Below, piece after piece: positions 1 through 61,040 of a stretch of 64,000 nucleotides of DNA (positions are counted from its first letter, which is position 1; every line of letters starts with the position of its first letter). Position numbers and translations under genes: made by a program. The notes beneath the pieces were generated by a model. That model saw only the letters and a program-made list of their open reading frames with translations, made no database searches and was not told the origin of the DNA. This stretch comes from Eledone cirrhosa (taxonomy: Eukaryota), in contig OZ024742.1 of assembly GCA_964016885.1 (NCBI GenBank), positions 54,994,001 to 55,058,000 of the forward strand, in the 5' to 3' direction.

Positions 1-3000
1 CTTGTCTAATGCCATGTGCGTTTTTCACCGCTAGTTGACTCCTCTGCCGCCAGGAAAAAACTCGTTGATAACGTAAATTCCGTTCCACTTACTCTAGTAG
101 GCTTTTATATTTATATGTGAGCTGATAGAGTACAGTCTAAGGATTTACAGAAACCCATGAAGCTAGATTTAACACCTTTCTAGTGGGTCCGGGTATGATT
201 TTACATTCATTTAAATTATTGACGTATTGTTTTATTGATATTTTTTATCTGTTTGGCCCGAATCTTCCTTTATCGATTTTAAATCGTATGGTTGATTGTA
301 GACTTGTTCTATATGTGACGGTATTTTAACGATAGTTATAGCTCTGATTCATCTGAATTATTGAGCCCTCTGCCGCTCATATCGAATTTCGTTTATCGTG
401 AACTCGTGCGCCGATTTTTCGATACTCGATCTTTCTAATATATTTAGCTCTGGACATAGCTATCCACCAGTTAATTTTATTGCTCATTTTTTGTCGATTC
501 TATTGAGTGATGAATAGCTTTTGTTTTATTTTAACATGTCTATTGAGCACTCTAATTCGATATGTGTATTTCCACATTCACTCGAATTGTTTTCGCGGAT
601 ATAGGGGTCATCTCCCTTGTCTAATGCCATGTGCGTTTTTCACCGCTAGTTGACTCCTCTGCCGCCAGGAAAAAACTCGTTGATAACGTAAATTCCGTTC
701 CACTTACTCTAGTAGGCTTTTATATTTATATGTGAGCTGATAGAGTACAGTCTAAGGATTTACAGAAACCCATGAAGCTAGATTTAACACCTTTCTAGTG
801 GGTCCGGGTATGATTTTACATTCATTTAAATTATTGACGTATTGTTTTATTGATATTTTTTATCTGTTTGGCCCGAATCTTCCTTTATCGATTTTGAATC
901 GTATGGTTGATTGTAGACTTGTTCTATATGTGACGGTATTTTAACGATAGTTATAGCTCTGATTCATCTGAATTATTGAGCCCTCTGCCGCTCATATCGA
1001 ATTTCGTTTATCGTGAACTCGTGCGCCGATTTTTCGATACTCGATCTTTCTAATATATTTAGCTCTGGACATAGCTATCCACCAGTTAATTTTATTGCTC
1101 ATTTTTTGTCGATTCTATTGAGTGATGAATAGCTTTTGTTTTATTTTAACATGTCTATTGAGCACTCTAATTCGATATGTGTATTTCCACATTCACTCGA
1201 ATTGTTTTCGCGGATATAGGGGTCATCTCCCTTGTCTAATGCCATGTGCGTTTTTCACCGCTAGTTGACTCCTCTGCCGCCAGGAAAAAACTCGTTGATA
1301 ACGTAAATTCCGTTCCACTTACTCTAGTAGGCTTTTATATTTATATGTGAGCTGATAGAGTACAGTCTAAGGATTTACAGAAACCCATGAAGCTAGATTT
1401 AACACCTTTCTAGTGGGTCCGGGTATGATTTTACATTCATTTAAATTATTGACGTATTGTTTTATTGATATTTTTTATCTGTTTGGCCCGAATCTTCCTT
1501 TATCGATTTTAAATCGTATGGTTGATTGTAGACTTGTTCTATATGTGACGGTATTTTAACGATAGTTATAGCTCTGATTCATCTGAATTATTGAGCCCTC
1601 TGCCGCTCATATCGAATTTCGTTTATCGTGAACTCGTGCGCCGATTTTTCGATACTCGATCTTTCTAATATATTTAGCTCTGGACATAGCTATCCACCAG
1701 TTAATTTTATTGCTCATTTTTTGTCGATTCTATTGAGTGATGAATAGCTTTTGTTTTATTTTAACATGTCTATTGAGCACTCTAATTCGATATGTGTATT
1801 TCCACATTCACTCGAATTGTTTTCGCGGATATAGGGGTCATCTCCCTTGTCTAATGCCATGTGCGTTTTTCACCGCTAGTTGACTCCTCTGCCGCCAGGA
1901 AAAAACTCGTTGATAACGTAAATTCCGTTCCACTTACTCTAGTAGGCTTTTATATTTATATGTGAGCTGATAGAGTACAGTCTAAGGATTTACAGAAACC
2001 CATGAAGCTAGATTTAACACCTTTCTAGTGGGTCCGGGTATGATTTTACATTCATTTAAATTATTGACGTATTGTTTTATTGATATTTTTTATCTGTTTG
2101 GCCCGAATCTTCCTTTATCGATTTTAAATCGTATGGTTGATTGTAGACTTGTTCTATATGTGACGGTATTTTAACGATAGTTATAGCTCTGATTCATCTG
2201 AATTATTGAGCCCTCTGCCGCTCATATCGAATTTCGTTTATCGTGAACTCGTGCGCCGATTTTTCGATACTCGATCTTTCTAATATATTTAGCTCTGGAC
2301 ATAGCTATCCACCAGTTAATTTTATTGCTCATTTTTTGTCGATTCTATTGAGTGATGAATAGCTTTTGTTTTATTTTAACATGTCTATTGAGCACTCTAA
2401 TTCGATATGTGTATTTCCACATTCACTCGAATTGTTTTCGCGGATATAGGGGTCATCTCCCTTGTCTAATGCCATGTGCGTTTTTCACCGCTAGTTGACT
2501 CCTCTGCCGCCAGGAAAAAACTCGTTGATAACGTAAATTCCGTTCCACTTACTCTAGTAGGCTTTTATATTTATATGTGAGCTGATAGAGTACAGTCTAA
2601 GGATTTACAGAAACCCATGAAGCTAGATTTAACACCTTTCTAGTGGGTCCGGGTATGATTTTACATTCATTTAAATTATTGACGTATTGTTTTATTGATA
2701 TTTTTTATCTGTTTGGCCCGAATCTTCCTTTATCGATTTTAAATCGTATGGTTGATTGTAGACTTGTTCTATATGTGACGGTATTTTAACGATAGTTATA
2801 GCTCTGATTCATCTGAATTATTGAGCCCTCTGCCGCTCATATCGAATTTCGTTTATCGTGAACTCGTGCGCCGATTTTTCGATACTCGATCTTTCTAATA
2901 TATTTAGCTCTGGACATAGCTATCCACCAGTTAATTTTATTGCTCATTTTTTGTCGATTCTATTGAGTGATGAATAGCTTTTGTTTTATTTTAACATGTC

Positions 3001-6000
3001 TATTGAGCACTCTAATTCGATATGTGTATTTCCACATTCACTCGAATTGTTTTCGCGGATATAGGGGTCATCTCCCTTGTCTAATGCCATGTGCGTTTTT
3101 CACCGCTAGTTGACTCCTCTGCCGCCAGGAAAAAACTCGTTGATAACGTAAATTCCGTTCCACTTACTCTAGTAGGCTTTTATATTTATATGTGAGCTGA
3201 TAGAGTACAGTCTAAGGATTTACAGAAACCCATGAAGCTAGATTTAACACCTTTCTAGTGGGTCCGGGTATGATTTTACATTCATTTAAATTATTGACGT
3301 ATTGTTTTATTGATAATTTTTATCTGTTTGGCCCGAATCTTCCTTTATCGATTTTAAATCGTATGGTTGATTGTAGACTTGTTCTATATGTGACGGTATT
3401 TTAACGATAGTTATAGCTCTGATTCATCTGAATTATTGAGCCCTCTGCCGCTCATATCGAATTTCGTTTATCGTGAACTCGTGCGCCGATTTTTCGATAC
3501 TCGATCTTTCTAATATATTTAGCTCTGGACATAGCTATCCACCAGTTAATTTTATTGCTCATTTTTTGTCGATTCTATTGAGTGATGAATAGCTTTTGTT
3601 TTATTTTAACATGTCTATTGAGCACTCTAATTCGATATGTGTATTTCCACATTCACTCGAATTGTTTTCGCGGATATAGGGGTCATCTCCCTTGTCTAAT
3701 GCCATGTGCGTTTTTCACCGCTAGTTGACTCCTCTGCCGCCAGGAAAAAACTCGTTGATAACGTAAATTCCGTTCCACTTACTCTAGTAGGCTTTTATAT
3801 TTATATGTGAGCTGATAGAGTACAGTCTAAGGATTTACAGAAACCCATGAAGCTAGATTTAACACCTTTCTAGTGGGTCCGGGTATGATTTTACATTCAT
3901 TTAAATTATTGACGTATTGTTTTATTGATATTTTTTATCTGTTTGGCCCGAATCTTCCTTTATCGATTTTAAATCGTATGGTTGATTGTAGACTTGTTCT
4001 ATATGTGACGGTATTTTAACGATAGTTATAGCTCTGATTCATCTGAATTATTGAGCCCTCTGCCGCTCATATCGAATTTCGTTTATCGTGAACTCGTGCG
4101 CCGATTTTTCGATACTCGATCTTTCTAATATATTTAGCTCTGGACATAGCTATCCACCAGTTAATTTTATTGCTCATTTTTTGTCGATTCTATTGAGTGA
4201 TGAATAGCTTTTGTTTTATTTTAACATGTCTATTGAGCACTCTAATTCGATATGTGTATTTCCACATTCACTCGAATTGTTTTCGCGGATATAGGGGTCA
4301 TCTCCCTTGTCTAATGCCATGTGCGTTTTTCACCGCTAGTTGACTCCTCTGCCGCCAGGAAAAAACTCGTTGATAACGTAAATTCCGTTCCACTTACTCT
4401 AGTAGGCTTTTATATTTATATGTGAGCTGATAGAGTACAGTCTAAGGATTTACAGAAACCCATGAAGCTAGATTTAACACCTTTCTAGTGGGTCCGGGTA
4501 TGATTTTACATTCATTTAAATTATTGACGTATTGTTTTATTGATATTTTTTATCTGTTTGGCCCGAATCTTCCTTTATCGATTTTAAATCGTATGGTTGA
4601 TTGTAGACTTGTTCTATATGTGACGGTATTTTAACGATAGTTATAGCTCTGATTCATCTGAATTATTGAGCCCTCTGCCGCTCATATCGAATTTCGTTTA
4701 TCGTGAACTCGTGCGCCGATTTTTCGATACTCGATCTTTCTAATATATTTAGCTCTGGACATAGCTATCCACCAGTTAATTTTATTGCTCATTTTTTGTC
4801 GATTCTATTGAGTGATGAATAGCTTTTGTTTTATTTTAACATGTCTATTGAGCACTCTAATTCGATATGTGTATTTCCACATTCACTCGAATTGTTTTCG
4901 CGGATATAGGGGTCATCTCCCTTGTCTAATGCCATGTGCGTTTTTCACCGCTAGTTGACTCCTCTGCCGCCAGGAAAAAACTCGTTGATAACGTAAATTC
5001 CGTTCCACTTACTCTAGTAGGCTTTTATATTTATATGTGAGCTGATAGAGTACAGTCTAAGGATTTACAGAAACCCATGAAGCTAGATTTAACACCTTTC
5101 TAGTGGGTCCGGGTATGATTTTACATTCATTTAAATTATTGACGTATTGTTTTATTGATATTTTTTATCTGTTTGGCCCGAATCTTCCTTTATCGATTTT
5201 AAATCGTATGGTTGATTGTAGACTTGTTCTATATGTGACGGTATTTTAACGATAGTTATAGCTCTGATTCATCTGAATTATTGAGCCCTCTGCCGCTCAT
5301 ATCGAATTTCGTTTATCGTGAACTCGTGCGCCGATTTTTCGATACTCGATCTTTCTAATATATTTAGCTCTGGACATAGCTATCCACCAGTTAATTTTAT
5401 TGCTCATTTTTTGTCGATTCTATTGAGTGATGAATAGCTTTTGTTTTATTTTAACATGTCTATTGAGCACTCTAATTCGATATGTGTATTTCCACATTCA
5501 CTCGAATTGTTTTCGCGGATATAGGGGTCATCTCCCTTGTCTAATGCCATGTGCGTTTTTCACCGCTAGTTGACTCCTCTGCCGCCAGGAAAAAACTCGT
5601 TGATAACGTAAATTCCGTTCCACTTACTCTAGTAGGCTTTTATATTTATATGTGAGCTGATAGAGTACAGTCTAAGGATTTACAGAAACCCATGAAGCTA
5701 GATTTAACACCTTTCTAGTGGGTCCGGGTATGATTTTACATTCATTTAAATTATTGACGTATTGTTTTATTGATATTTTTTATCTGTTTGGCCCGAATCT
5801 TCCTTTATCGATTTTAAATCGTATGGTTGATTGTAGACTTGTTCTATATGTGACGGTATTTTAACGATAGTTATAGCTCTGATTCATCTGAATTATTGAG
5901 CCCTCTGCCGCTCATATCGAATTTCGTTTATCGTGAACTCGTGCGCCGATTTTTCGATACTCGATCTTTCTAATATATTTAGCTCTGGACATAGCTATCC

Positions 6001-9000
6001 ACCAGTTAATTTTATTGCTCATTTTTTGTCGATTCTATTGAGTGATGAATAGCTTTTGTTTTATTTTAACATGTCTATTGAGCACTCTAATTCGATATGT
6101 GTATTTCCACATTCACTCGAATTGTTTTCGCGGATATAGGGGTCATCTCCCTTGTCTAATGCCATGTGCGTTTTTCACCGCTAGTTGACTCCTCTGCCGC
6201 CAGGAAAAAACTCGTTGATAACGTAAATTCCGTTCCACTTACTCTAGTAGGCTTTTATATTTATATGTGAGCTGATAGAGTACAGTCTAAGGATTTACAG
6301 AAACCCATGAAGCTAGATTTAACACCTTTCTAGTGGGTCCGGGTATGATTTTACATTCATTTAAATTATTGACGTATTGTTTTATTGATATTTTTTATCT
6401 GTTTGGCCCGAATCTTCCTTTATCGATTTTAAATCGTATGGTTGATTGTAGACTTGTTCTATATGTGACGGTATTTTAACGATAGTTATAGCTCTGATTC
6501 ATCTGAATTATTGAGCCCTCTGCCGCTCATATCGAATTTCGTTTATCGTGAACTCGTGCGCCGATTTTTCGATACTCGATCTTTCTAATATATTTAGCTC
6601 TGGACATAGCTATCCACCAGTTAATTTTATTGCTCATTTTTTGTCGATTCTATTGAGTGATGAATAGCTTTTGTTTTATTTTAACATGTCTATTGAGCAC
6701 TCTAATTCGATATGTGTATTTCCACATTCACTCGAATTGTTTTCGCGGATATAGGGGTCATCTCCCTTGTCTAATGCCATGTGCGTTTTTCACCGCTAGT
6801 TGACTCCTCTGCCGCCAGGAAAAAACTCGTTGATAACGTAAATTCCGTTCCACTTACTCTAGTAGGCTTTTATATTTATATGTGAGCTGATAGAGTACAG
6901 TCTAAGGATTTACAGAAACCCATGAAGCTAGATTTAACACCTTTCTAGTGGGTCCGGGTATGATTTTACATTCATTTAAATTATTGACGTATTGTTTTAT
7001 TGATATTTTTTATCTGTTTGGCCCGAATCTTCCTTTATCGATTTTAAATCGTATGGTTGATTGTAGACTTGTTCTATATGTGACGGTATTTTAACGATAG
7101 TTATAGCTCTGATTCATCTGAATTATTGAGCCCTCTGCCGCTCATATCGAATTTCGTTTATCGTGAACTCGTGCGCCGATTTTTCGATACTCGATCTTTC
7201 TAATATATTTAGCTCTGGACATAGCTATCCACCAGTTAATTTTATTGCTCATTTTTTGTCGATTCTATTGAGTGATGAATAGCTTTTGTTTTATTTTAAC
7301 ATGTCTATTGAGCACTCTAATTCGATATGTGTATTTCCACATTCACTCGAATTGTTTTCGCGGATATAGGGGTCATCTCCCTTGTCTAATGCCATGTGCG
7401 TTTTTCACCGCTAGTTGACTCCTCTGCCGCCAGGAAAAAACTCGTTGATAACGTAAATTCCGTTCCACTTACTCTAGTAGGCTTTTATATTTATATGTGA
7501 GCTGATAGAGTACAGTCTAAGGATTTACAGAAACCCATGAAGCTAGATTTAACACCTTTCTAGTGGGTCCGGGTATGATTTTACATTCATTTAAATTATT
7601 GACGTATTGTTTTATTGATATTTTTTATCTGTTTGGCCCGAATCTTCCTTTATCGATTTTAAATCGTATGGTTGATTGTAGACTTGTTCTATATGTGACG
7701 GTATTTTAACGATAGTTATAGCTCTGATTCATCTGAATTATTGAGCCCTCTGCCGCTCATATCGAATTTCGTTTATCGTGAACTCGTGCGCCGATTTTTC
7801 GATACTCGATCTTTCTAATATATTTAGCTCTGGACATAGCTATCCACCAGTTAATTTTATTGCTCATTTTTTGTCGATTCTATTGAGTGATGAATAGCTT
7901 TTGTTTTATTTTAACATGTCTATTGAGCACTCTAATTCGATATGTGTATTTCCACATTCACTCGAATTGTTTTCGCGGATATAGGGGTCATCTCCCTTGT
8001 CTAATGCCATGTGCGTTTTTCACCGCTAGTTGACTCCTCTGCCGCCAGGAAAAAACTCGTTGATAACGTAAATTCCGTTCCACTTACTCTAGTAGGCTTT
8101 TATATTTATATGTGAGCTGATAGAGTACAGTCTAAGGATTTACAGAAACCCATGAAGCTAGATTTAACACCTTTCTAGTGGGTCCGGGTATGATTTTACA
8201 TTCATTTAAATTATTGACGTATTGTTTTATTGATATTTTTTATCTGTTTGGCCCGAATCTTCCTTTATCGATTTTAAATCGTATGGTTGATTGTAGACTT
8301 GTTCTATATGTGACGGTATTTTAACGATAGTTATAGCTCTGATTCATCTGAATTATTGAGCCCTCTGCCGCTCATATCGAATTTCGTTTATCGTGAACTC
8401 GTGCGCCGATTTTTCGATACTCGATCTTTCTAATATATTTAGCTCTGGACATAGCTATCCACCAGTTAATTTTATTGCTCATTTTTTGTCGATTCTATTG
8501 AGTGATGAATAGCTTTTGTTTTATTTTAACATGTCTATTGAGCACTCTAATTCGATATGTGTATTTCCACATTCACTCGAATTGTTTTCGCGGATATAGG
8601 GGTCATCTCCCTTGTCTAATGCCATGTGCGTTTTTCACCGCTAGTTGACTCCTCTGCCGCCAGGAAAAAACTCGTTGATAACGTAAATTCCGTTCCACTT
8701 ACTCTAGTAGGCTTTTATATTTATATGTGAGCTGATAGAGTACAGTCTAAGGATTTACAGAAACCCATGAAGCTAGATTTAACACCTTTCTAGTGGGTCC
8801 GGGTATGATTTTACATTCATTTAAATTATTGACGTATTGTTTTATTGATATTTTTTATCTGTTTGGCCCGAATCTTCCTTTATCGATTTTAAATCGTATG
8901 GTTGATTGTAGACTTGTTCTATATGTGACGGTATTTTAACGATAGTTATAGCTCTGATTCATCTGAATTATTGAGCCCTCTGCCGCTCATATCGAATTTC

Positions 9001-9656
9001 GTTTATCGTGAACTCGTGCGCCGATTTTTCGATACTCGATCTTTCTAATATATTTAGCTCTGGACATAGCTATCCACCAGTTAATTTTATTGCTCATTTT
9101 TTGTCGATTCTATTGAGTGATGAATAGCTTTTGTTTTATTTTAACATGTCTATTGAGCACTCTAATTCGATATGTGTATTTCCACATTCACTCGAATTGT
9201 TTTCGCGGATATAGGGGTCATCTCCCTTGTCTAATGCCATGTGCGTTTTTCACCGCTAGTTGACTCCTCTGCCGCCAGGAAAAAACTCGTTGATAACGTA
9301 AATTCCGTTCCACTTACTCTAGTAGGCTTTTATATTTATATGTGAGCTGATAGAGTACAGTCTAAGGATTTACAGAAACCCATGAAGCTAGATTTAACAC
9401 CTTTCTAGTGGGTCCGGGTATGATTTTACATTCATTTAAATTATTGACGTATTGTTTTATTGATATTTTTTATCTGTTTGGCCCGAATCTTCCTTTATCG
9501 ATTTTAAATCGTATGGTTGATTGTAGACTTGTTCTATATGTGACGGTATTTTAACGATAGTTATAGCTCTGATTCATCTGAATTATTGAGCCCTCTGCCG
9601 CTCATATCGAATTTCGTTTATCGTGAACTCGTGCGCCGATTTTTCGATACTCGATC

Positions 9657-9668
<12 letters not shown>
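1..9668 (+). repeat. Tandem array of a 615-bp hammerhead-containing unit (retrozyme-like), about 15.7 copies, open at the left window edge
   Basis: cttgtctaat recurs at 1, 616, 1231 ... 9226. Only two single-base variants noticed by eye (896, 3316). No ORF of 60 aa or more inside the unit. The array stops at unit position 443 (taatatat) and runs into (TA)n. Confidence 0.97.
60..194 (+). ncRNA. Type I hammerhead ribozyme, U3-A8 core variant with long stem II (repeated every 615 bp, 16 copies)
   Basis: Stem I ACUCG(60-64)/CGGGU(190-194). Core UUGAUAA 65-71. Stem II GUAAAUUC(73-80)/GGAUUUAC(141-148), inner UACUCUA/UAGAGUA. GAAA 150-153. Stem III ACCCA/UGGGU, inner CUAGA/UCUAG. Cleavage triplet GUC 187-189. 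Confidence 0.8.
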
Positions 9669-11570
<1,902 letters not shown>

Positions 11571-11581
11571 AATAATCTACG

Positions 11582-14500
11582 CGAATATTCTATGTCTATA
11601 TTCACATATATATCGCTATTTCAGAGCATTTATTCCAATTTCTAATTTCTGCCGGACCGGCAACCGCTCTTTCAAACCAGTTCCTGTACACAGCTAAGTA
11701 TTCTATAAGTCTCTAGCTGTGTCATTCTCGATAAAAGCACTGGATATGTAGTCCTGATGATTTCTAACAAGAATGAAACGCGTAGATTACTTCCCTTGCT
11801 TTTATCGAGAATCTAATTGTAATACGTGACGTATTCTATTCTATAGCGATTAGGTCTTCAAAATGTTTATTATAAACATACAGAATATTCTCGAATATTC
11901 TATGTCTATATTCACATATATATCGCTATTTCAGAGCATTTATTCCAATTTCTAATTTCTGCCGGACCGGCAACCGCTCTTTCAAACCAGTTCCTGTACA
12001 CAGCTAAGTATTCTATAAGTCTCTAGCTGTGTCATTCTCGATAAAAGCACTGGATATGTAGTCCTGATGATTTCTAACAAGAATGAAACGCGTAGATTAC
12101 TTCCCTTGCTTTTATCGAGAATCTAATTGTAATACGTGACGTATTCTATTCTATAGCGATTAGGTCTTCAAAATGTTTATTATAAACATACAGAATATTC
12201 TCGAATATTCTATGTCTATATTCACATATATATCGCTATTTCAGAGCATTTATTCCAATTTCTAATTTCTGCCGGACCGGCAACCGCTCTTTCAAACCAG
12301 TTCCTGTACACAGCTAAGTATTCTATAAGTCTCTAGCTGTGTCATTCTCGATAAAAGCACTGGATATGTAGTCCTGATGATTTCTAACAAGAATGAAACG
12401 CGTAGATTACTTCCCTTGCTTTTATCGAGAATCTAATTGTAATACGTGACGTATTCTATTCTATAGCGATTAGGTCTTCAAAATGTTTATTATAAACATA
12501 CAGAATATTCTCGAATATTCTATGTCTATATTCACATATATATCGCTATTTCAGAGCATTTATTCCAATTTCTAATTTCTGCCGGACCGGCAACCGCTCT
12601 TTCAAACCAGTTCCTGTACACAGCTAAGTATTCTATAAGTCTCTAGCTGTGTCATTCTCGATAAAAGCACTGGATATGTAGTCCTGATGATTTCTAACAA
12701 GAATGAAACGCGTAGATTACTTCCCTTGCTTTTATCGAGAATCTAATTGTAATACGTGACGTATTCTATTCTATAGCGATTAGGTCTTCAAAATGTTTAT
12801 TATAAACATACAGAATATTCTCGAATATTCTATGTCTATATTCACATATATATCGCTATTTCAGAGCATTTATTCCAATTTCTAATTTCTGCCGGACCGG
12901 CAACCGCTCTTTCAAACCAGTTCCTGTACACAGCTAAGTATTCTATAAGTCTCTAGCTGTGTCATTCTCGATAAAAGCACTGGATATGTAGTCCTGATGA
13001 TTTCTAACAAGAATGAAACGCGTAGATTACTTCCCTTGCTTTTATCGAGAATCTAATTGTAATACGTGACGTATTCTATTCTATAGCGATTAGGTCTTCA
13101 AAATGTTTATTATAAACATACAGAATATTCTCGAATATTCTATGTCTATATTCACATATATATCGCTATTTCAGAGCATTTATTCCAATTTCTAATTTCT
13201 GCCGGACCGGCAACCGCTCTTTCAAACCAGTTCCTGTACACAGCTAAGTATTCTATAAGTCTCTAGCTGTGTCATTCTCGATAAAAGCACTGGATATGTA
13301 GTCCTGATGATTTCTAACAAGAATGAAACGCGTAGATTACTTCCCTTGCTTTTATCGAGAATCTAATTGTAATACGTGACGTATTCTATTCTATAGCGAT
13401 TAGGTCTTCAAAATGTTTATTATAAACATACAGAATATTCTCGAATATTCTATGTCTATATTCACATATATATCGCTATTTCAGAGCATTTATTCCAATT
13501 TCTAATTTCTGCCGGACCGGCAACCGCTCTTTCAAACCAGTTCCTGTACACAGCTAAGTATTCTATAAGTCTCTAGCTGTGTCATTCTCGATAAAAGCAC
13601 TGGATATGTAGTCCTGATGATTTCTAACAAGAATGAAACGCGTAGATTACTTCCCTTGCTTTTATCGAGAATCTAATTGTAATACGTGACGTATTCTATT
13701 CTATAGCGATTAGGTCTTCAAAATGTTTATTATAAACATACAGAATATTCTCGAATATTCTATGTCTATATTCACATATATATCGCTATTTCAGAGCATT
13801 TATTCCAATTTCTAATTTCTGCCGGACCGGCAACCGCTCTTTCAAACCAGTTCCTGTACACAGCTAAGTATTCTATAAGTCTCTAGCTGTGTCATTCTCG
13901 ATAAAAGCACTGGATATGTAGTCCTGATGATTTCTAACAAGAATGAAACGCGTAGATTACTTCCCTTGCTTTTATCGAGAATCTAATTGTAATACGTGAC
14001 GTATTCTATTCTATAGCGATTAGGTCTTCAAAATGTTTATTATAAACATACAGAATATTCTCGAATATTCTATGTCTATATTCACATATATATCGCTATT
14101 TCAGAGCATTTATTCCAATTTCTAATTTCTGCCGGACCGGCAACCGCTCTTTCAAACCAGTTCCTGTACACAGCTAAGTATTCTATAAGTCTCTAGCTGT
14201 GTCATTCTCGATAAAAGCACTGGATATGTAGTCCTGATGATTTCTAACAAGAATGAAACGCGTAGATTACTTCCCTTGCTTTTATCGAGAATCTAATTGT
14301 AATACGTGACGTATTCTATTCTATAGCGATTAGGTCTTCAAAATGTTTATTATAAACATACAGAATATTCTCGAATATTCTATGTCTATATTCACATATA
14401 TATCGCTATTTCAGAGCATTTATTCCAATTTCTAATTTCTGCCGGACCGGCAACCGCTCTTTCAAACCAGTTCCTGTACACAGCTAAGTATTCTATAAGT

Positions 14501-15322
14501 CTCTAGCTGTGTCATTCTCGATAAAAGCACTGGATATGTAGTCCTGATGATTTCTAACAAGAATGAAACGCGTAGATTACTTCCCTTGCTTTTATCGAGA
14601 ATCTAATTGTAATACGTGACGTATTCTATTCTATAGCGATTAGGTCTTCAAAATGTTTATTATAAACATACAGAATATTCTCGAATATTCTATGTCTATA
14701 TTCACATATATATCGCTATTTCAGAGCATTTATTCCAATTTCTAATTTCTGCCGGACCGGCAACCGCTCTTTCAAACCAGTTCCTGTACACAGCTAAGTA
14801 TTCTATAAGTCTCTAGCTGTGTCATTCTCGATAAAAGCACTGGATATGTAGTCCTGATGATTTCTAACAAGAATGAAACGCGTAGATTACTTCCCTTGCT
14901 TTTATCGAGAATCTAATTGTAATACGTGACGTATTCTATTCTATAGCGATTAGGTCTTCAAAATGTTTATTATAAACATACAGAATATTCTCGAATATTC
15001 TATGTCTATATTCACATATATATCGCTATTTCAGAGCATTTATTCCAATTTCTAATTTCTGCCGGACCGGCAACCGCTCTTTCAAACCAGTTCCTGTACA
15101 CAGCTAAGTATTCTATAAGTCTCTAGCTGTGTCATTCTCGATAAAAGCACTGGATATGTAGTCCTGATGATTTCTAACAAGAATGAAACGCGTAGATTAC
15201 TTCCCTTGCTTTTATCGAGAATCTAATTGTAATACGTGACGTATTCTATTCTATAGCGATTAGGTCTTCAAAATGTTTATTATAAACATACAGAATATTC
15301 TCGAATATTCTATGTCTATATT

Positions 15323-15333
<11 letters not shown>
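11582..15333 (+). repeat. 310-bp hammerhead-containing tandem array, inverted right arm (12.1 copies, ribozyme on the plus strand)
   Basis: Reverse complement of the left-arm unit. cgaatattctatg at 11582, 11892 ... 15302. Ends at ttcacatatatat and merges into (TA)n. Confidence 0.97.
11724..11812 (+). ncRNA. Type I hammerhead ribozyme with palindromic minimal stem III (17 complete copies across both arms)
   Basis: Stem I GUAGUC(11748-53)/GAUUAC(11785-90), extended by a perfect 16-bp AUUCUCGAUAAAAGCA/UGCUUUUAUCGAGAAU helix. Core CUGAUGA 11754-60. Stem II UUCU-aaca-AGAA. GAAA 11775-78. Stem III ACGCGU palindrome. Cleavage GUA after 11784. Confidence 0.9.
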
Positions 15334-15378: not shown

Positions 15379-15379
<1 letters not shown>

Positions 15380-21169: not shown

Positions 21170-21252
21170 ATATATATAGTGTATATATATATATGTATAG
21201 TGTATATATATATATATATATAGAGTATATATATATATATATATATATAATG

Positions 21253-22437: not shown

Positions 22438-22591
22438 AGCAAATGTATGGTAGGTCGTACGTGAATCGCGATGATCACGCCTGACCTACCAAATATGCGA
22501 CGGGAGCTAGTTAAGCTCTATGCGTATAAGCAGAGCAGAAATATTAATGAAAAAGAACAAAGGAACTATTATGACATTATAAGAAGTTTAT

Positions 22592-22638
22592 TGCCGACAG
22601 CCGTTTCGTCCGACCATATGGTGGGACTTTTCAAGGCA
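22592..22638 (-). ncRNA. Minimal type I hammerhead (U3-A8) in a pLTR-like segment between TA tracts
   Basis: Minus strand: UGCC UUGAAAA GUCC-c-ACCAUAUGGU-c-GGAC GAAA CGGCUG UC/ GGCA. Confidence 0.85.
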
Positions 22639-22793
22639 TATAACAGGTGATTGTAAGTTCACTATTTACATCAACGTTTCACTCAAGATTAGCAGTTTGA
22701 AATTCTGGTATAGATCAACAGCTCCGCTTGTATATTTGGGTTCTATATTCTAAGGGGGCTCTTTTATATTAGTTGTAGGAGTTGTAAAATGGG

Positions 22794-22874
22794 TTCAAAA
22801 GGTGAGTTGAGATGGAGGGTCTGTGGTTTTTCTCACAAAAACCACAGACCCTCCATCTCAACTCACCTTTTGAA
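22794..22874. repeat. Perfect 38-bp inverted repeat with 5-nt loop
   Basis: ttcaaaaggtgagttgagatggagggtctgtggttttt-ctcac-aaaaaccacagaccctccatctcaactcaccttttgaa. Confidence 0.95.
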
Positions 22875-22974
22875 AAGCAGAAGAACTGCGAAACCGGTAA
22901 AGGAACCAAATAAATATATATATATTTTTTAAAAAAATAAGACTTCAGTTGCATTTTCGATTTCATCCCTTTTT

Positions 22975-23049
<75 letters not shown>

Positions 23050-36700: not shown

Positions 36701-36988
36701 CTAAAACCACCAGTCGACCCTCCGGGTCCAGGTGCACCTTCTGTGTGGCAAGACCCAGGTATTTTCGCAGCAGAAGGACAACCCCACCCCCACCCTCGGC
36801 TGACAGAGAGATGCGTAGATCTCAAAGTCGTCGAAGATGGGGGCCAGTTGGCGCTCGCTGCTGATCCTGAACACACAAATAACCATTACATCCCATCTGT
36901 TCGACCTGAGGTCATTTAAGAGTTTGCCCTGTTTCCAGGACATCCCCAAGCCGCGTGCATTCACACATCCAACTCTTATATTGGCCAT
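33768..36988 (-). pseudogene. Tx1 ORF2 (APE endonuclease, reverse transcriptase, C-terminal Cys/His), broken
   Basis: NARGL, GDWNGILD, SYLDRFL, SDHK, KSPGLDGL, FRPITLLN, LDQSKAFDRV, YADDV and CPRC..ETVAHAFVHC across ORFs 36701-36988, 35694-36737, 35096-35785, 34896-35099 and 33768-34850. Confidence 0.9.
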
Positions 36989-37030
36989 CTTGGTGCTGAA
37001 GAGTTAAAAAGGAAGAGGAAAGGAAATTAC

Positions 37031-38814: not shown

Positions 38815-40023
38815 TTCCCCCAAGTCTACAGTTTTGAGATGAATATTGAAAATTTCGCCCCAGAAAGGGGCGAAAATTAATTGACTCAACGTCTGACGGC
38901 CCAGGCAAGGGGTTAAACTAAACAATGTTATTAAATTGAGCAATAAACTCACAGTTTTTTTGACAATAATCCGTAAAAATCCGGAGCGAAGTAAATCACG
39001 TCTATATCAAGTGTTAATTGATATAGAGAGAGGGAAAGTTTGGTGGCTGTAGATATAGAGAAGTGGATTAAAAGTGTGCTGTGTATGATAGCCAAAGAGA
39101 GGAGGAGAGGCTGGTCGTACTCTCGCGTCCCAAATAATATGAGGGGTGGGATAAAGTGGAGGTGTGGGAAATCGCTAATTGTATAGTGTACGTTCATAAA
39201 TATGGGATTTCTTGTAATGTTCTTCTTTGTCATATATAATGTTTTTTTTTAATGTAAAATAAAATTATTACACTCTCAGGTATCTGTATCACTTACAATA
39301 AAATTTCGCTGAAGATAAATTAGCAAAATTTAATAAGTAGGGAGTGGAGTGTGATAAGAACGGGGGGGGGGGGTGTCTAAAAAGATAATAAGCGGGAGGG
39401 ATGATTATTATTCACGACTTGAGTGTACGGGAATTATTGACGGACGTAAGAATGACAACTCAATATCAAAGTAGAGTTTAAATATTCATTTATTATGGCT
39501 AATTGATGAGTTGCTCTGGCGTTTCACCTGCGTACACACATGATCATCAAACAAGACTAGTGATAGTGAGAGTGCGCGGATGAAACTCTAGAGTAACAAA
39601 GCTCACCAAAGCCCATGATATGGGTTAGAGTTATTGTATATTAATCCCTTAGGAAAGGATAAAGAACATAATTTTTTCAAAATTATATATATATATACAG
39701 AGGTGGTGGAAGGTATCCACGCGTAGTAATTATATTTTTCTCCCCAAACTAGCAAAGCACACATCTACTTGAATATATGACACAATTTATATGTATGTTC
39801 TGTTTATTGCATATCGATGTTTTCTGACCATTTTAGAGTGAAAAGATCTAAACCAGAGGGTATCAAACGTTTTGGGTTACCACCCACTTCGCGCCCACGT
39901 AATATCCTCATTGGAAATATGGGTGGGGGCATAACAGCGCACCCACCCCTATTTCCATCGAGACATGCAAACACGGAATTTGTAAATAATATATTATAAA
40001 TAAAATCGTTAATTTATATATAA

Positions 40024-40537
40024 CTAGCAGAATGACCCCGCGTTGCTCGGGATTTGCTCTAGCGTTCTTATATATTTGATATATATTTATCCTTATCGAG
40101 CCTCGTGAAATAAACACGTTTGTTTATATTTTGTTATTGTTTATGCAAAAATATCTGTACACGAATATATAATTATATATATATATATTAAAATAACAGA
40201 TTAAAGTTTAAGCAAAGAATCGCTGCTTTCACCCTTAACGGAGTCTTATGAAACTAAAAAAATCAATCTGTGAACGCAGAAGTAAATAAGGACACGACGT
40301 CGTAGCTATGTATCTATCTAAAAAGACAGACTAAGAATTATAGAGAGATCGCTAAATCGCCTAATACGGTCCCTAGGGCATGGAAAATTTGAAATTTTTT
40401 TGCTCAAAACACTCACACGATCAAAAGTATTACATGTGTAAAGTTTGAAAACAATCGGTCAGGTGGTTCTCGAGTTTTAGGGAGTCAGACAGACAGACAG
40501 ATAGACAGACATACATTCTCTGTTTTAGATATATAGA
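40024..40537 (-). mobile_element. Non-autonomous Helitron-like element
   Basis: The minus strand starts A|TCtatat, contains (GTCT)n, and ends cccgagcaacgcggg hairpin ...CTAG|T. Confidence 0.65.
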
Positions 40538-40632
40538 TAAATAATATAATATATACTATGTATAAATAAATATTATATATTTCTAAATTCAGAAATGCTT
40601 CCACCACCTTTATCTATCTATCTATCTATCTA

Positions 40633-40675
<43 letters not shown>

Positions 40676-40774
40676 TAATAATAATTAATTTGAAGACTAA
40701 AATCCAAAGAGGGCTCGATAAGGATAAATATATATCAAATATATAAGAACCGTAGAGCAAATATTTATTAAAAT

Positions 40775-40889
40775 ACAGATTAAAGTTTAAGCCAAGAATC
40801 GCTGCTTTCACCTTTAACGGGATATTCTGAGTTTCAGAAGATCCCGTTAAGGGTGAAAGCAGCGATTCTTTGCTTAAACATTAATCTGT
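40775..40889. repeat. Imperfect palindrome made of two opposed copies of a dispersed repeat with a hammerhead-like motif
   Basis: Arms 40775-40830 and 40834-40889. The same family occurs at ~40195-40250, ~40995-41065 and ~47480-47670. Confidence 0.85.
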
Positions 40890-41060
40890 GATTTTAATAT
40901 ATATATATATATATAGTAATAAATGTGAAGACTAAAATACAAAGAGGGCTCGATAAGGATTAATATATAACAAATATATAAGAACCGTAGAGCAATTTCA
41001 GAAGATCCCGTTAAGGGTGAAAGCAGCGATTTTTTGCTTAAACTTTAATCTGTTATTTTA

Positions 41061-42102
<1,042 letters not shown>

Positions 42103-42221
42103 CCAGCGTTATTCGAATTTCGGCTGTGGTCGAAAACCAAGCCAAACGCAATATCCTAGTTATGCTGGCAAGCGCTCCATGGACCAAATATATACCAGAT
42201 CAATAAACATAGGTTATAAAG

Positions 42222-42268
<47 letters not shown>

Positions 42269-42271
42269 CTT

Positions 42272-42591
<320 letters not shown>

Positions 42592-42655
42592 CATATATGT
42601 ATTGACTATATATATTTATATCTGTCTATCTATCTATCTATATATCCATCTCTCT

Positions 42656-42907
42656 ATCAGCCTGTAGGTTGAGGAAAAGGAGGAGGAGAGGAAAGGAGTA
42701 CAAACTCTTCGTACTCCTGGAGATGAGGGTTGCACATTTTTTTTCGGGGGTATGTGTTACCCATATAAACTGTCTCCCTCTATTGGGGAAAATCGACTAA
42801 CTTTTAAATTCCATCTGTGATAACATTTTACACGTTTTTATTGTATGTAAAGTTCCCCCTTTGTATTTGTCCCCTTCTTTTGTGCCCCTGTGGCTAATAA
42901 AGAAATA
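42656..42907 (+). mobile_element. 5'-truncated Tx1-family 3' end with ~21-bp TSD
   Basis: Homologous to the reverse complement of 33530-33785 (agcctgtaggt, gagggttgcacattttt, cccctttgtatttgtccc, aataaa). tatctatatatccatctctct occurs at 42635-42655 and 42908-42928. Confidence 0.85.
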
Positions 42908-42917
42908 TATCTATATA

Positions 42918-42986
<69 letters not shown>

Positions 42987-43025
42987 ATATATATATATAT
43001 GTATATATGTATATATATACATGTA

Positions 43026-43107
<82 letters not shown>

Positions 43108-43637
43108 GATGTATATATATATACGTCTGGAAATACGCAAAGCTATAGATCAGTGTTACCACACCAGAGTCAAATATGATAAACAGCGCCTTATACGGAA
43201 ATACGAATGGACTGTAAACAAATACTACAATGACAACATCCGCTCCCACAGACGGACCGACTACAACCACACCAGGGGCAACAGCTATAAAACACCCTCC
43301 GCTACACCCCCCCCAACATCGAACTACCTACCAAAGATGCTTCACACCTCGTTACCGACCTAACCGGTACCCTCACCAACGACGAACTCGAACTCCTGCG
43401 CCTCGGACCCAAGTTCATCATTACACAGCGTCTCGATGATAGACTGAAACTCGACATCGAAACCAACTTCTGTCGGACAGCATATCAACTGAAATGGCTA
43501 ACCGCCATCCATAACAATACCGAGATCGATTACAACCCCACAACCCACCACACACTCCCCACGTATCACCTCGACAACCCACTCCACCCCCCCCCCCCCC
43601 ACCCACCAACCAGGAACTTGACACTAAACTACTCAGG

Positions 43638-45428
43638 TTGAAACATTCTATCTCTAACATCCTTTCCCAACACACACACACACACAATAAACGCAACCTC
43701 AACAATGCACAATTTAATACTCTCACCAACCTAAGATCCAGGAACCTTGTGTACCTTCCCTCTGACAAAGGGAAAGAATTCTGTGTCATCTCGAGAGAGA
43801 CCTACAACAACTTAGCTCTCCAACATCTTAATGACCACAGCCTCTACTCGAAAGTCACAGGGACCTCCTCGACTCTAATCGAGGAAGGCATTAACACCCT
43901 ATGGACTAACATCTGTGTCCAACGAAAACTGCCAAAGAAGGTAAAAAACAACATAATGACTCGAAACAGCAAACTACCCACCTTCTACCACCTGGTTAAA
44001 ACACATAAACAAGGACCCGATTTGAAAATCAGGCCCATTGTCTCTAGCGTGGAGGGCCCACTCTACAAAATATCGTGGCTGCTCTCCACACTACTGAAAC
44101 CCATTCTACACACACTACCAGCCCACGTCTGCAGCTCAAAGGAGGTCTTGGAGCGACTACACCATCTGGCGCCCAACACCAGAAAGGACAACGGTTATGC
44201 CTTCAGTCTTGATGTGGTCGCCCTTTATACCTCCGTACCAGCATCCCCAGCTGTCGACCTGTTGACCGAACGAGTCCGAGCATCTAACTTACACTGCTTC
44301 GGACTCACACACACGGACATCCACCAACTCCTCTCCTTCGTTGTGGATAATGCACTCTTCAATTTCCTCGGCCACACGTACAAACAAATCTCTGGGCTAC
44401 CTATGGGCTCTAGTCTGTCCGGCATACTTGCGATCTCGTACATGGACCACCTGGAGCGCAAGGCACTCAATACCTGCCAACCCAACGCCGTCGCCTTCTA
44501 CTCCAGATACGTTGATGACATCCTGATACTTACTTCTTCCCGGGAGATGGCGAATGAAATTCACCAAATCTTCAACGATACTGACCATCACGTCGATTTC
44601 ACCATCGAACACCCAGGAGAAGACGGGTCACTCGCCCTCCTCGACTTCCGTATCAACATCTCGGAAGAAGGAGACATAAACACCACCTTCTACCGCAAAG
44701 CAGCGTGCAAGGACTTATTTGTGCATTACAACTCAGCCCTCCCCAACAACGCTAAGAGATGCTATGTCCTAAATGAACTGACACGGATCACTAACAGATG
44801 CAGCGACCCGATGGGTGTTCTCACCCATACCACGCAATTCCGTAATCTACTCAGATCTAATGGTTATCCCAAGCGACTGATTAACGGTATTAGAGACCCC
44901 AGACCCAATAGACAGACACCCACTAGAAACTTAAATAAAAGCAGGTGCTTCTTTAAAATCCCCCACCTGAGTGAATATACCACGAACGCCATCCGCAGGG
45001 CCATACGGACGGAGGGACTTGACATACATTTGGCCCACACAGGACCTTCGCTGCGAAGATGCCTCTCCAACAAACCCGACGAGTCAGATGGGACGTGTTC
45101 CCTCAGCAACTGCCCGATACGGGGGGCAGATTGCCTACGCACCTATGTCGCATATAAGATTCAATGCGATAAATGTAACAAGTTTTACATAGGTAGCACC
45201 ATCCGACCCCTACATGTTCGTATCAAGGAACATATCAACACCAACGCATCTTCCTTCCGTAAACACATCCTTAAATGCGGAAACCCACAGGGTAGACCCT
45301 TGGTCACAGTCCTAGCGACTGAACGCAGCATCGGATCCTTAAGGATAAAGGAAGCACTTGTTATTAAGAACCTCAGACCCCCACTTAACAACCGGGCTGA
45401 GAGAAATGAGCTGACATGGCTAACTTAA
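43638..45428 (+). CDS. PLE reverse transcriptase - GIY-YIG endonuclease polyprotein (596-aa open segment)
   Basis: PSDKG, FYHLVKTHK, IRPIVS, SLDVVALYTSV, QISGLPMGS, RYVDD, LALLD, YRK, CSLSNCPIRGADC linker, AYKIQC..C..FYIGST...RIKEH, E...I...PPLN. Confidence 0.93.
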   Translation: MKHSISNILSQHTHTHNKRNLNNAQFNTLTNLRSRNLVYLPSDKGKEFCVISRETYNNLALQHLNDHSLYSKVTGTSSTLIEEGINTLWTNICVQRKLPKKVKNNIMTRNSKLPTFYHLVKTHKQGPDLKIRPIVSSVEGPLYKISWLLSTLLKPILHTLPAHVCSSKEVLERLHHLAPNTRKDNGYAFSLDVVALYTSVPASPAVDLLTERVRASNLHCFGLTHTDIHQLLSFVVDNALFNFLGHTYKQISGLPMGSSLSGILAISYMDHLERKALNTCQPNAVAFYSRYVDDILILTSSREMANEIHQIFNDTDHHVDFTIEHPGEDGSLALLDFRINISEEGDINTTFYRKAACKDLFVHYNSALPNNAKRCYVLNELTRITNRCSDPMGVLTHTTQFRNLLRSNGYPKRLINGIRDPRPNRQTPTRNLNKSRCFFKIPHLSEYTTNAIRRAIRTEGLDIHLAHTGPSLRRCLSNKPDESDGTCSLSNCPIRGADCLRTYVAYKIQCDKCNKFYIGSTIRPLHVRIKEHINTNASSFRKHILKCGNPQGRPLVTVLATERSIGSLRIKEALVIKNLRPPLNNRAERNELTWLT

Positions 45429-46030
45429 CCATAGTGACCATTCACAGCCTACGGCCTGCTATCTTCACACACACGCACGTATATGCATACCCATACGCAT
45501 ACACACACACATCTATATTTATACACGCACACATGTTTTTACAACCTACCACCTTTCACACCCTTTGATTTCCAGCTTCTACAGCCCACTATCTTTCACA
45601 TACACACGCACTCACACATATACACACACAGTTACACACACATGTTTACCCATACGCTTACACACACACATCTATATTTATACACGCACACATGTTTTAC
45701 AACCTACCACCTTTCACACCCTTTGATTTCCAGCTTCTACAGCCCACTATCTTTCACACACACACACACTCACACATATACACACTTACACTTATACACA
45801 CACAGTTACACACATATATATTTACACACACATATTTTACGGCTTTCACACGCTAGCGCATCCTCTTGATTTAACCCATTTGGTCAGTAGCTTTTGCCAC
45901 AGCCTATCACGCGCACGCGCATTCTTTCCCTCGTTTAAATTTTAAATAATTTTCTCCCCATAACGGCATTCCTGTCTTAACGACATCACAACTTTCTCCG
46001 CTTGGCCTGTTCTCCCCCTTTTGGAACTTT

Positions 46031-46066
46031 TCCCCCGTTGATGGGCGTGAGCCCGAAATATTGGGA
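46031..46066 (+). ncRNA. Degenerate minimal hammerhead in the PLE pLTR
   Basis: UCCC CCGUUGA u GGGC-guga-GCCC GAAA UAUU GGGA. Two substitutions relative to CUGAUGA. Confidence 0.55.
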
Positions 46067-46257
46067 TTAAATCTCCACTACGGTAACCCTTCTACCTTTG
46101 TTTTGTTTTCATCTTTGTCTCTCTCAATTTTCACTTTCACCTGTTTCTCCTATCTATCATTCTCTTCCTACCTCGAGATTCCCCTCTGCATTGTTGTGGC
46201 TTTCTTAACTACGTATTTTACACATTTCACAATGCTTCAAGCAAACTTTAACACCCT

Positions 46258-46295
<38 letters not shown>

Positions 46296-46302
46296 TATAT
46301 AC

Positions 46303-46375
<73 letters not shown>

Positions 46376-46410
46376 TTATAAGAATCAAAGAACTGTTCAA
46401 AACATTTTTA

Positions 46411-46457
46411 TGCTTACAACTGTTTCCTCCAAACCGAGGTTTGGATTCTTCGGAGCA
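46411..46457 (-). ncRNA. Minimal hammerhead (U4C) next to (TA)n
   Basis: Minus strand: UGCU CCGAAGA a-UCCAAACC-uc-GGUUUGGA-g GAAA CAGUUG UA/ AGCA. Confidence 0.7.
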
Positions 46458-47727
46458 ATTTATTAATGAATGAACACTTATATGACCTCCTTTTCACCCA
46501 AGAGACATACAGATACATATGCAAATATTGTGGGACAACATTCATTGCAGCATTTAGAGTGGCAGTACACACTTAGAGATTACATTCATATTAAAAGATA
46601 CAATAAAAAATACAAGTTAAAATACAACATGAAAATAAGCGGTTATATAGTGCAAAGGTTATATGTGTGGCAAGCACGTGCGTCTTGTTTATATAGGTGT
46701 GGCAGACAGTTACGTGTAGTAGAAGCACTTAAGTAGGTAAACAAGAGTGTTAGGTTGGTTGATCTAGTGACAAATTCTTTATATGATTGTTATAGTCTGT
46801 GTGTGGAGAAATAATATAAGCATTAAAAATAGTGCAAGCATTAAAAATATTAAAAATATTGGAAATGCGCAGCGAAGGGATGATATGGACTTCATGTACT
46901 TCGACATTTTCATAGTCTGGGGAGTGTATTTTTCAGATTATATGCCCCTCACATAATCCACGACGATTCGATATTGAGCGTTTGACAATCCAGTTAGAGA
47001 ATCGTAGTCTGATGTTCTTTAGTTCAATACAGGAGGATGTTACGTTTCGAGAATCGACACCGAAATACTACCCGGAAGTGTGTGTGTAGATAAGGGGAGT
47101 TAATGCATGAGGGGAGGTAACTCCGAGGTTTCTATTACTAACTACTAAAATGTGTCTCAAAATAGACCCTAACTTCTACGGTTATGCGAAATTTCTAAAA
47201 AAATTTCTAAAATTTAAAGTGTTTCAACTATAGAGTAGTCTATTAAGTTGTGCTGAAGGTGTTCGTATTATTATGGTGATTAGCCCCAATCGTAGAGTGC
47301 CACAAATGAATATTATAGGCGACGAGCGAGGATTCTAAATTAATGATCTCTGTGGTTGCAGTCTACTCAAATGACCAGGCGCGGTGATTGCAGTATCACT
47401 TCAACACACAATGATCTCTGATAAGTTCTGGGTCATCGCTTGCTACATTGGATGTCGAAAGATAATCATCATACAGGAATAATAATAAATTTGAAGACGA
47501 AAATCGAAAGAGGGCTCGATAAGGATAAATATATATCAAATATATAATATATAAGAACCGTAGAGCAAATATTTAGTAAAATAACAGATTAAAGTTTAAG
47601 CAAAGAATTGCTGCTTTCACCCTTAACGGGATCTTCTGAAACAAAAAGGTCAATCTGTGAACGCAGAAGTAAATATTTCTAAAAACGTTGCAACCGAAGG
47701 AAGACAGGAATACGATACTTTGGTTCG

Positions 47728-51022: not shown

Positions 51023-51435
51023 ATATTTACGACAGCCTCAGTACACCATTTATACCTATCATACCTCAATCATAAAAATATGTTTTCAAAGACTTCATTT
51101 TTTTAAAGAGCATTGGTGTAATATTTCAAAAGATTCCATTATATTACAAGAATAGTACGTCAGATGGATTCAACTCACATTCATACATTCATATGAGGTT
51201 TTGCAATATAAAAGCGAGTGCATCATATGATCGCCAAGTAGAAAATTAAATGATGGATATACAAAGAAGATAATATATCAAATTTGTTTTTCATCTTCAT
51301 CTCAGTACACAACTATATCATATACATCATTTTAGACGATTATATTATATTATTCATTCGACAAAATTGCATAGGGCCAAACATAGCTCTGGTTAAGTAG
51401 TTTGCTTCGCAAGCACGTGGATTCCGATTGTGTCT
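51023..51435. repeat. Left arm of a 413-bp inverted repeat (right arm 53544-53956)
   Basis: Near-identical reverse complements; only about 4 differences seen. Confidence 0.95.
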
Positions 51436-51720: not shown

Positions 51721-51826
51721 CAAGGGAGTATAATTTCTTTTCTTTTACAACATTGCCACCAGGAAGGTGGTCGGCCAAATATGTACTCGAAATTAAGAGA
51801 AAGAGAAATATACATACATATATACA

Positions 51827-53430: not shown

Positions 53431-53461
<31 letters not shown>
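51827..53461 (-). mobile_element. Three head-to-tail copies of a non-coding, probably RTE-derived retroposon separated by (CATA)n
   Basis: Copies at ~51827-52157, 52170-52729 and 52793-53403 share one end (acatggtggctgccaactcg) and are variably truncated at the other. The minus strand carries an RTE-like ggaaggaaaactctga motif. Confidence 0.75.
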
Positions 53462-61017: not shown

Positions 61018-61040
61018 TATTACTATTATTATTATTATTA

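Follow-up and report, generated by a model that had tools for sequence, protein, structure and literature searches.

The 64,000-nucleotide stretch of the Eledone cirrhosa genome analyzed here (contig OZ024742.1, positions 54,994,001 to 55,058,000, assembly GCA_964016885.1; hereafter the window) contains a Penelope-like element (PLE) that runs from one (TA)n microsatellite to another, together with tandem arrays of 310-bp and 615-bp units that also border (TA)n (Table 1). PLEs are proposed but untested helpers of animal retrozymes, and the link between the two is already in print. A first-pass annotation had described the element as nearly intact and as the candidate mobiliser of two retrozymes in the arrays. 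In our analysis, the element is probably a copy of an endonuclease-bearing (EN+) PLE, likely of the Nematis group, that lies in (TA)n, lacks its 5' part and carries two frameshifts. A Penelope-type enzyme, more likely one from another family, probably placed the 310-bp arrays.

Table 1. Features of the window discussed in the text (positions are those of the window; a dot marks features without a strand)
Feature	Position	Strand	Remarks
615-bp tandem array	1..9668	.	at least 15.7 copies; 2 mismatches in 15 full copies; no ribozyme found
310-bp array, left arm	9850..11570	-	5.6 copies, 0 mismatches; 3' end faces (TA)n 9664-9850
Head-to-head junction	11560..11592	.	11-13-nt templated duplication at the ACGCGU (helix III) palindrome of the hammerhead
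310-bp array, right arm	11582..15333	+	12.1 copies, 0 mismatches; meets (TA)n 15327-15370
Two diverging hammerhead-like 3' ends	22439..22977	.	between two (TA)n tracts; each points into one
5' (TA)n tract	42986..43123	.	(TC)n/(TATC)n ahead, from 42922
PLE	43124-46259	+	(TA)n to (TA)n
First coding segment	43124..43306	+	5'-truncated; matches P0121 aa 117-158
C8 run	43307..43314	+	likely frame break 1; break confined to 43291-43347
Second coding segment	43315..43586	+	GPKF (GxKF) motif 43405; matches P0121 aa 173-263
C14 run	43587..43600	+	frame break 2
Main frame	43601..45428	+	SDKG 43761; RT core 44208/44394/YVDD 44508; thumb; GIY-YIG
Main-frame linker and stop		+	Cx4Cx6C linker 45096-45134; stop codon 45426-45428
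3' untranslated region / single pLTR-type end	45429..46259	+	holds CA-rich tandem duplication
Minimal type I hammerhead-like motif	46031..46066	+	UCCC-CCGUUGA-U-GGGC(GUGA)GCCC-GAA-AUAU-U/GGGA
3' (TA)n tract	46260..46372	.	
Hammerhead-like motif	46373..46460	-	CCGAAGA core, 46453; faces 3' (TA)n from far side

The stop-free frame of the element spans 43515-45428, or 637 amino acids from stop to stop, of which 596 are counted from the TTG at 43638. Pfam places a reverse transcriptase (RT) domain in this frame (RVT_1, E 3e-11) and a GIY-YIG domain that stays under the curated cut-off (E 0.0015). The RT motifs LDVVALY (44208), GLPMGS (44394) and RYVDDI (44505) are present, as are the GxKF and DKG motifs of a telomerase-like RT. 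The linker CSLSNCPIRGADC at 45096 lies between the RT and the C-terminal GIY-YIG, in which inspection of the motifs identifies the CCHH residues and the catalytic R, H, E and N. Frame, Pfam and motifs agree on the 596-residue RT and GIY-YIG protein with a Cys linker that had been noted earlier. The linker residues C498, C503 and C510 are invariant across 18 sequences.

A protein search in which 8000 candidates were scored returned 308 relatives, of which 120 were listed. Among these 120, the top relatives, including an Octopus bimaculoides protein, are 51-54% identical to the element and most are around 40% identical; the named cluster members of other matches are corals. Together with the RT tree (see below) and a putative SINE motif, these matches suggest an octopod as the probable host. 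Matches in the ESM Atlas (0.96-0.97) are eukaryotic RT clusters, chiefly from flatworms, arthropods and nematodes, and a profile search against the PDB gave the Drt3a RT as top match, with TERT chains also among the matches (E 4.5e-4). A tblastn search for a second copy of the family elsewhere in the window gave 0 matches.

The closest full-length relative, a protein of 859 amino acids (P0121), spans three successive frames of the element, with residues 117-158 aligning to 43133-43246, 173-263 to 43348-43608 and 254-852 to 43587-45401. The upstream frames are genuine PLE sequence, as 69 of the 120 homologues match upstream of 43560 in another frame. Compared to P0121, the element lacks about 115 N-terminal codons of the 859, the start codon and any 5' pseudo-long terminal repeat (pLTR), which does not fit the description as nearly intact. 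The first aligned codon is preceded, at 10 nt, by the microsatellite, in which the sole upstream in-frame ATG (43109) is located. Of the features of an autonomous PLE, neither an upstream pLTR or promoter, nor a start codon, nor an uninterrupted full open reading frame (ORF) was found in the element. Because it is 5'-truncated and has neither start codon nor 5' pLTR, this copy cannot be a source copy, and it would make no enzyme.

Only two C runs of at least six nucleotides occur in the element, C8 and C14, and both frame breaks are located there. In the relatives (nine sequences, compared by eye), about seven residues separate the start of the Pro run from the next L, a spacing that about 6 C would fit. 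Relative to this spacing the C14 run looks like an expansion of about 8 nt, or may reflect a poly-Pro expansion combined with a small error. The breaks do fall in poly-C runs, as the first-pass annotation had observed, but the sequencing errors it had proposed as their origin are doubtful for C14. Conserved columns deviate in 2 of 98 cases in the main frame, equal to the median of 101 homologues, and by this measure the main frame is barely decayed and the copy fairly young.

That the locus is an active source copy, with frame breaks that are errors of the assembly, appears hardly credible. Both breaks coincide with C runs and the remaining ORF keeps its catalytic motifs, but the N-terminal codons, start and 5' pLTR are absent regardless of the C runs, and the C14 run exceeds what the relatives imply. 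Moreover, with 2 mismatches over about 15 kb of array sequence, the assembly must otherwise be either clean or collapsed. The hammerhead of the element (see below) also carries two changes at positions for which reduced activity has been reported (U4C, and at A6 a change other than the one found here; PMC3088659). The element itself is best described as an ordinary dead copy. In a plausible course of events, based on PLE biology as described in PMC11167929, the GIY-YIG endonuclease of an intact parent would have nicked an AT-rich tract, and the freed 3' end would have primed on the element RNA near its 3' repeat. Reverse transcription would have ended before it reached the ORF start, with about 115 codons uncopied, and the resulting copy would have had neither promoter nor start codon. 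The C runs in it would have slipped afterwards.

The (TA)n tracts adjoin both ends of the element, as had been reported. The 5' end is set independently by protein homology, and the 3' end by the tract alone, without a second copy. Of the positions outside (TA)n in 15334-64000, only 1.06% are found at 10 nt or less from such a tract. The 3' untranslated region contains a CA-rich tandem duplication (45488-45802) with a 158-bp unit and 94% matches.

The core of the hammerhead-like motif in this region, CCGUUGA, departs from the consensus at U4C and A6U. Our first hammerhead descriptor missed the motif, which was found solely with two core mismatches allowed; the descriptor, loosened after the motif was seen, gave 0 matches in 300 shuffles. 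The predicted fold is no better than that of shuffled sequences (z -0.8 in a 76-nt context, z -1.8 for 51 nt), and Rfam detects no hammerhead in 42100-46400 up to E 10. The minimal hammerheads of PLEs are described as having an extra nucleotide after A9, a G10.1-C11.1 pair and a palindromic helix III (PMC4209133), all of which are seen in the motif of the element. A scan of bacterial genomes yielded 38 pattern matches and, from these, one related locus (L001) with 38% amino acid identity to the element. This locus (positions 1-2381), on a contig labelled as a bacterial metagenome-assembled genome, holds a coral-type PLE with 91% identity to a Montipora protein; it is probably coral DNA, a eukaryotic contamination in a bacterial bin. 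The hammerhead of L001, at 2254, has an intact core in the same architecture (UCC-CUGAUGA-U-GCCG(UAGAU)CGGC-GAA-AGCU-U/GGA). Because L001 combines this architecture with the CUGAUGA core, the motif of the element is, as judged from the two sequences, a true family hammerhead that carries U4C and A6U. Both U4C and A6C are reported to lower hammerhead activity in PMC3088659, in the consulted parts of which A6U was not found. In this one copy, the CCGUUGA core may represent decay or a natural variant.

The element has the features of an EN+ PLE, i.e. an RT with GxKF and DKG, a C-terminal GIY-YIG and a minimal type I hammerhead near the 3' end (with altered core). For placement within this group, we compared motifs by eye with the alignments of PMC8557442 (Figs S2 and S7). 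The element has several motifs in common with Nematis, namely SDKGxEF, LxKTHK, RPIxSxxxGP, xYRK/KxA..K and IPxxS, as well as a short linker. As in Nematis_Cr, _C4 and _Pp, the GIY-YIG is C-terminal with CCHH and follows directly on a short Cys linker placed right before VY..C..C..YIG (PMC8557442). In contrast to the Nematis linker, which is of the four-Cys CX2-5CxxC form (Cx4-5CxxCx7C), that of the element has three Cys (Cx4Cx6C), and a Cx4Cx6-7C linker is found in 86 of 101 homologues. Further differences are YIGST in the element and YIGET in Nematis, named relatives from octopus and corals, and a (TA)n preference that the relevant passages of PMC8557442 do not state for Nematis. Because the linker has three and not four Cys, we call the element Nematis-like, which is likely on its motifs, and do not file it as Nematis. 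Its subgroup, Nematis-like with three Cys in the linker, would be a widespread one.

The motifs speak against Neptune, Poseidon, Hydra and Naiad as the clade of the element. Neptune also has a Cys linker between the RT and a C-terminal endonuclease, for which a role in microsatellite bias has been hypothesised (PMC8557442), but in the published alignments it has four Cys, an insert of about 25 amino acids, ADKGG and a KxTD pre-thumb motif, none of which is present in the element. Members of the Hydra clade, including Hydra-1_Obim, are similar in their (TA)n insertion, three-Cys linker and 3' hammerhead, but as described lack CCHH and GxKF and have DKT and CxCx5C, where the element has CCHH, GPKF and DKG. 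Poseidon (PAc, Anolis; PMC11167929) has the same domain order; in contrast to the element, no Cys linker is described for Penelope/Poseidon. The endonuclease of Naiad/Chlamys is N-terminal and that of the element C-terminal. A quick RT tree was built from 72 of 189 rows and contains no named clade reference; in it, the element groups (SH-aLRT 100) with three unnamed rows and the O. bimaculoides protein. When longer relatives were sought as references for other clades, only 2 distant proteins were obtained. Of the assignments between which an RT phylogeny had been suggested to decide, Neptune, Poseidon and Naiad are thus disfavoured by motifs and a Nematis-like one is favoured.

The evidence for a Penelope-type insertion comes from the 310-bp array. 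Its two arms are arranged head to head with both 3' ends facing (TA)n, and there are zero mismatches over the 17.7 copies in both orientations. These copies contain 17 hammerhead motifs (GUAGUC-CUGAUGA-U-UUCU(AACA)AGAA-U-GAA-ACGCGU-A/GAUUAC), with the core in the right arm at 11754 and recurring every 310 nt. The motif is of type I, with a perfect core, a 6-bp stem I and the palindromic ACGCGU, and has 0 matches in 1000 shuffles; in Rfam, the unit reaches just E 0.34 with HH9. The unit has 35% GC and folds better than shuffled sequences (z -3.4, 40 shuffles). On sequence grounds it fits the definition of a non-LTR retrozyme that is given in PMC7229834. As in the metazoan non-LTR retrozymes described there and in 10.64898/2026.07.22.740005, the unit is a tandem repeat of about 300 bp whose type I hammerhead has a palindromic helix III; in contrast to these, the array is flanked by (TA)n and inverted head to head. 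Among the records listed in literature searches there was no study of cephalopod retrozymes and none of microsatellite targeting by retrozymes.

Head-to-head inversion is described as typical of PLE insertions (PMC3846280; PMC8557442), and the only PLE to have been reconstituted in vitro, PAc, acts on AT-rich DNA, where it cuts both strands and extends them (PMC11167929). The anatomy of the 310-bp array (identical copies, head-to-head arms, 3' ends on (TA)n) therefore gives structural support for PLE-type insertion of rolling-circle cDNA, which goes beyond the published arguments from co-occurrence and pLTR homology. In the order of events that we propose, dimer-type hammerhead cleavage would be followed by circularisation. 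Both cut ends of a (TA)n tract would then serve as primers for the synthesis of rolling-circle cDNA, and the head-to-head joining of the two arms would occur through microhomology. The right arm ends within the longest alternating TA run of the unit (8 nt), and the left arm has merely 2 nt; the 615-bp array likewise ends against (TA)n in the longest such run of its unit (6 nt). As two of the three array ends break in the longest TA run of their unit, pairing of the array ends with the nicked tract, as primer and template, is suggested.

Alternatively, (TA)n could be a general landing or breakage site, at which the arrays arose through a LINE (long interspersed nuclear element) RT, break repair or amplification at the DNA level, with the PLE as a mere co-tenant. 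(TA)n is fragile. (TA)n flanks an RTE-type LINE fragment at 15371-17148, and a tract at about 21170 marks the end of a second LINE-like fragment; in addition, two of three array ends use the longest TA run, and the templated duplication at the junction of the arms is of a kind typical of microhomology joining. Against this stand three traits that are in line with PLE insertions: no mismatch in 17.7 copies of both orientations, (TA)n at the two 3' ends, and arms placed head to head. The region 22439-22977 has the same layout with PLE-type hammerheads. On balance, we consider a non-PLE route unlikely.

The element is a PLE inserted in (TA)n, with a hammerhead, and for the 310-bp arrays, whose anatomy agrees with integration of the PLE type, a PLE is the natural candidate; to this extent the earlier proposal holds. 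The more specific claim that this copy or its family was the mobiliser is not borne out: the copy is truncated and frameshifted, has no match of more than 12 nt to the units and has a different type of hammerhead. It is conceivable that intact members of the Nematis-like family mobilise circles of 310 nt, and perhaps of 615 nt, into (TA)n. They would share the target tract, the main frame is barely decayed, and the anatomy of the array is PLE-like. The element and the 310-bp unit both have a type I hammerhead in which helix III is palindromic and A9 is followed by an additional U. In vertebrates, co-occurrence of PLEs and retrozymes and pLTR homology have been described (10.64898/2026.07.22.740005), and in a rotifer pLTR-driven mobilisation in trans has been inferred, even though co-resident types showed no cross-mobilisation (PMC3846280).

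Against this, in a search for shared pLTR-derived sequence, no match between the element and the 310-bp or 615-bp unit exceeds 12 nt (best E 0.28); in Xenopus, homology to PLE ends or pLTRs is reported for 21 of 57 retrozyme families (10.64898/2026.07.22.740005; a sample without molluscs). Stem II closes with G-C in the element; the 310-bp hammerhead has a U after A9 and a U before GAA (U.U closure). Octopus has at least two further PLE clades for which a (TA)n preference has been published, with Hydra-1_Obim and Naiad_Obim/Ovul (PMC8557442 File S1), three other hammerhead-like ends lie in the window, and no relative among the best 120 of 308 exceeds 54% identity. Taken together, we regard mobilisation by this family as improbable. 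Also improbable is a scenario in which the 310-bp locus is the direct footprint of an enzyme of the three-Cys Nematis-like family that cut both strands of a (TA)n tract, with each end pairing with the circle at a TA-rich spot, priming of rolling-circle cDNA and head-to-head joining of the arms. If the helper did come from this family, enzyme, template and target could be named for a first in vitro test of PLE and retrozyme with defined reagents, and CCGUUGA might be a natural hammerhead variant.

With another family as the source of the enzyme, the U.U-closed 310-bp hammerhead leans towards a helper of the Hydra type, as residues of this type occur in 14 of 25 Hydra families (our count from PMC8557442 File S2). 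Several observations weigh against this or against parts of the interpretation that we favour. An axolotl retrozyme also has U.U closure (PMC7229834) and the published Hydra-1_Obim hammerhead is without it (PMC8557442); because of this, U.U closure does not identify the helper. A lack of sequence similarity does not exclude action in trans, and the family of the element is known here from one copy. The clade call was made from motifs compared by eye, not from a tree with named Nematis references. The L001 relative ends about 100 nt past its hammerhead on (ATT)n instead of (TA)n (n = 1), which weakens strict TA targeting for the wider family. Finally, PAc, the sole PLE tested in vitro, is reported to initiate at a site non-homologous to the cut DNA (PMC11167929), contrary to the two of three array ends that lie in the longest TA run of the unit.

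The shared (TA)n cannot pick out the helper either, because other PLE clades, three hammerhead-like ends and the RTE-type LINE fragment share the niche. A (TA)n preference has been published for several PLE clades, including those of octopus. The PLE and the arrays do share this niche, as had been proposed; its specificity to them is contradicted by the LINE fragment, the other hammerhead-like ends and published PLEs.

Of the two retrozymes named in the first-pass annotation, the 310-bp unit has its hammerhead and the 615-bp unit has no detectable ribozyme. The latter, as a circle, folds better than shuffled sequences (z -4.0, 40 shuffles), and neither our own descriptors (one poor match with two mismatches) nor Rfam up to E 10 gave a hammerhead in it. 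A look-alike, CUGAUAGA, near position 122 of the unit was rejected by eye, as it has no stem I or valid cleavage triplet. The 615-bp array is a structured tandem repeat that is not shown to be a retrozyme; it could be retrozyme-like with a lost hammerhead, or contain an undescribed motif.

Besides those of the element and the 310-bp array, three hammerhead-like motifs point into (TA)n (22634 on the minus strand, 22870 on the plus strand and 46453 on the minus strand). The first two, in 22439-22977, have the rare U3-A8 core (UUGAAAA); these two perfect-core motifs compare with 0 matches in 40 shuffles of 45 kb, and Rfam Hammerhead_1 reaches E 0.036 at 22590-22639 for the minus motif. A near-perfect hairpin of 81 nt (22794-22874) lies in the same region, which probably represents remnants of other PLE families. 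The third motif is placed tail to tail with the element, with U4C as in the element and a helix III that resembles the ACAG..GU of the Hydra clade, and 46373-46460 is probably the 3' end of another element. No PLE domain was found with Pfam behind the 46453 motif, in 27900-29000 or in 41100-42010; over the 12 frames searched, the sole match was an AP (apurinic/apyrimidinic) endonuclease in 29001-32999. At gathering thresholds, Rfam gave no matches in the whole window, and the many microRNA matches to microsatellites and hairpins obtained up to E 10 were rejected.

Several other sequences border simple repeats. The RTE-type LINE fragment (15371-17148), which is enclosed by (TA)n, has a PHD finger and a (GAT)n tail. 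A LINE-like 3' piece (20430-21170, plus strand), for which Pfam gave no match, stops at a TA tract. A frameshifted L1/Tx1-type element (33450-39000, minus strand; AP endonuclease, RT and zf-RVT) enters a (GA/TC)-rich tract with its 3' end, and a 73%-identical 3' fragment of such an element (42649-42920, plus strand) lies beside (TC)n just upstream of the PLE; this is possibly a (TC)n-targeting family. Close by, an inverted duplication (about 90%) of a sequence of about 80 bp flanks a 150-bp (TA)n at 42227-42637, both copies stopping at the tract. A 125-bp piece between two (TA)n tracts (42100-42225, minus strand) shows, by eye, a stem II, GAAA, a palindromic helix III and a stem I partner without a CUGANGA core, and is possibly a hammerhead with a deleted core. 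Decayed LINE-like sequence is present at 29000-33000 (AP endonuclease) and 60000-63600 (RT fragments), both on the minus strand. Units of about 341 bp, each beginning at an (ACAT)n run, occupy 51814-53460 and lie between the two copies of a 413-bp inverted duplication (51023-51435 and 53544-53956; 99% identical). A small family of direct and inverted repeats (85-95%) at 40052-41084 and 47478-47675, some beside short (TA)n, resembles miniature inverted-repeat transposable elements.

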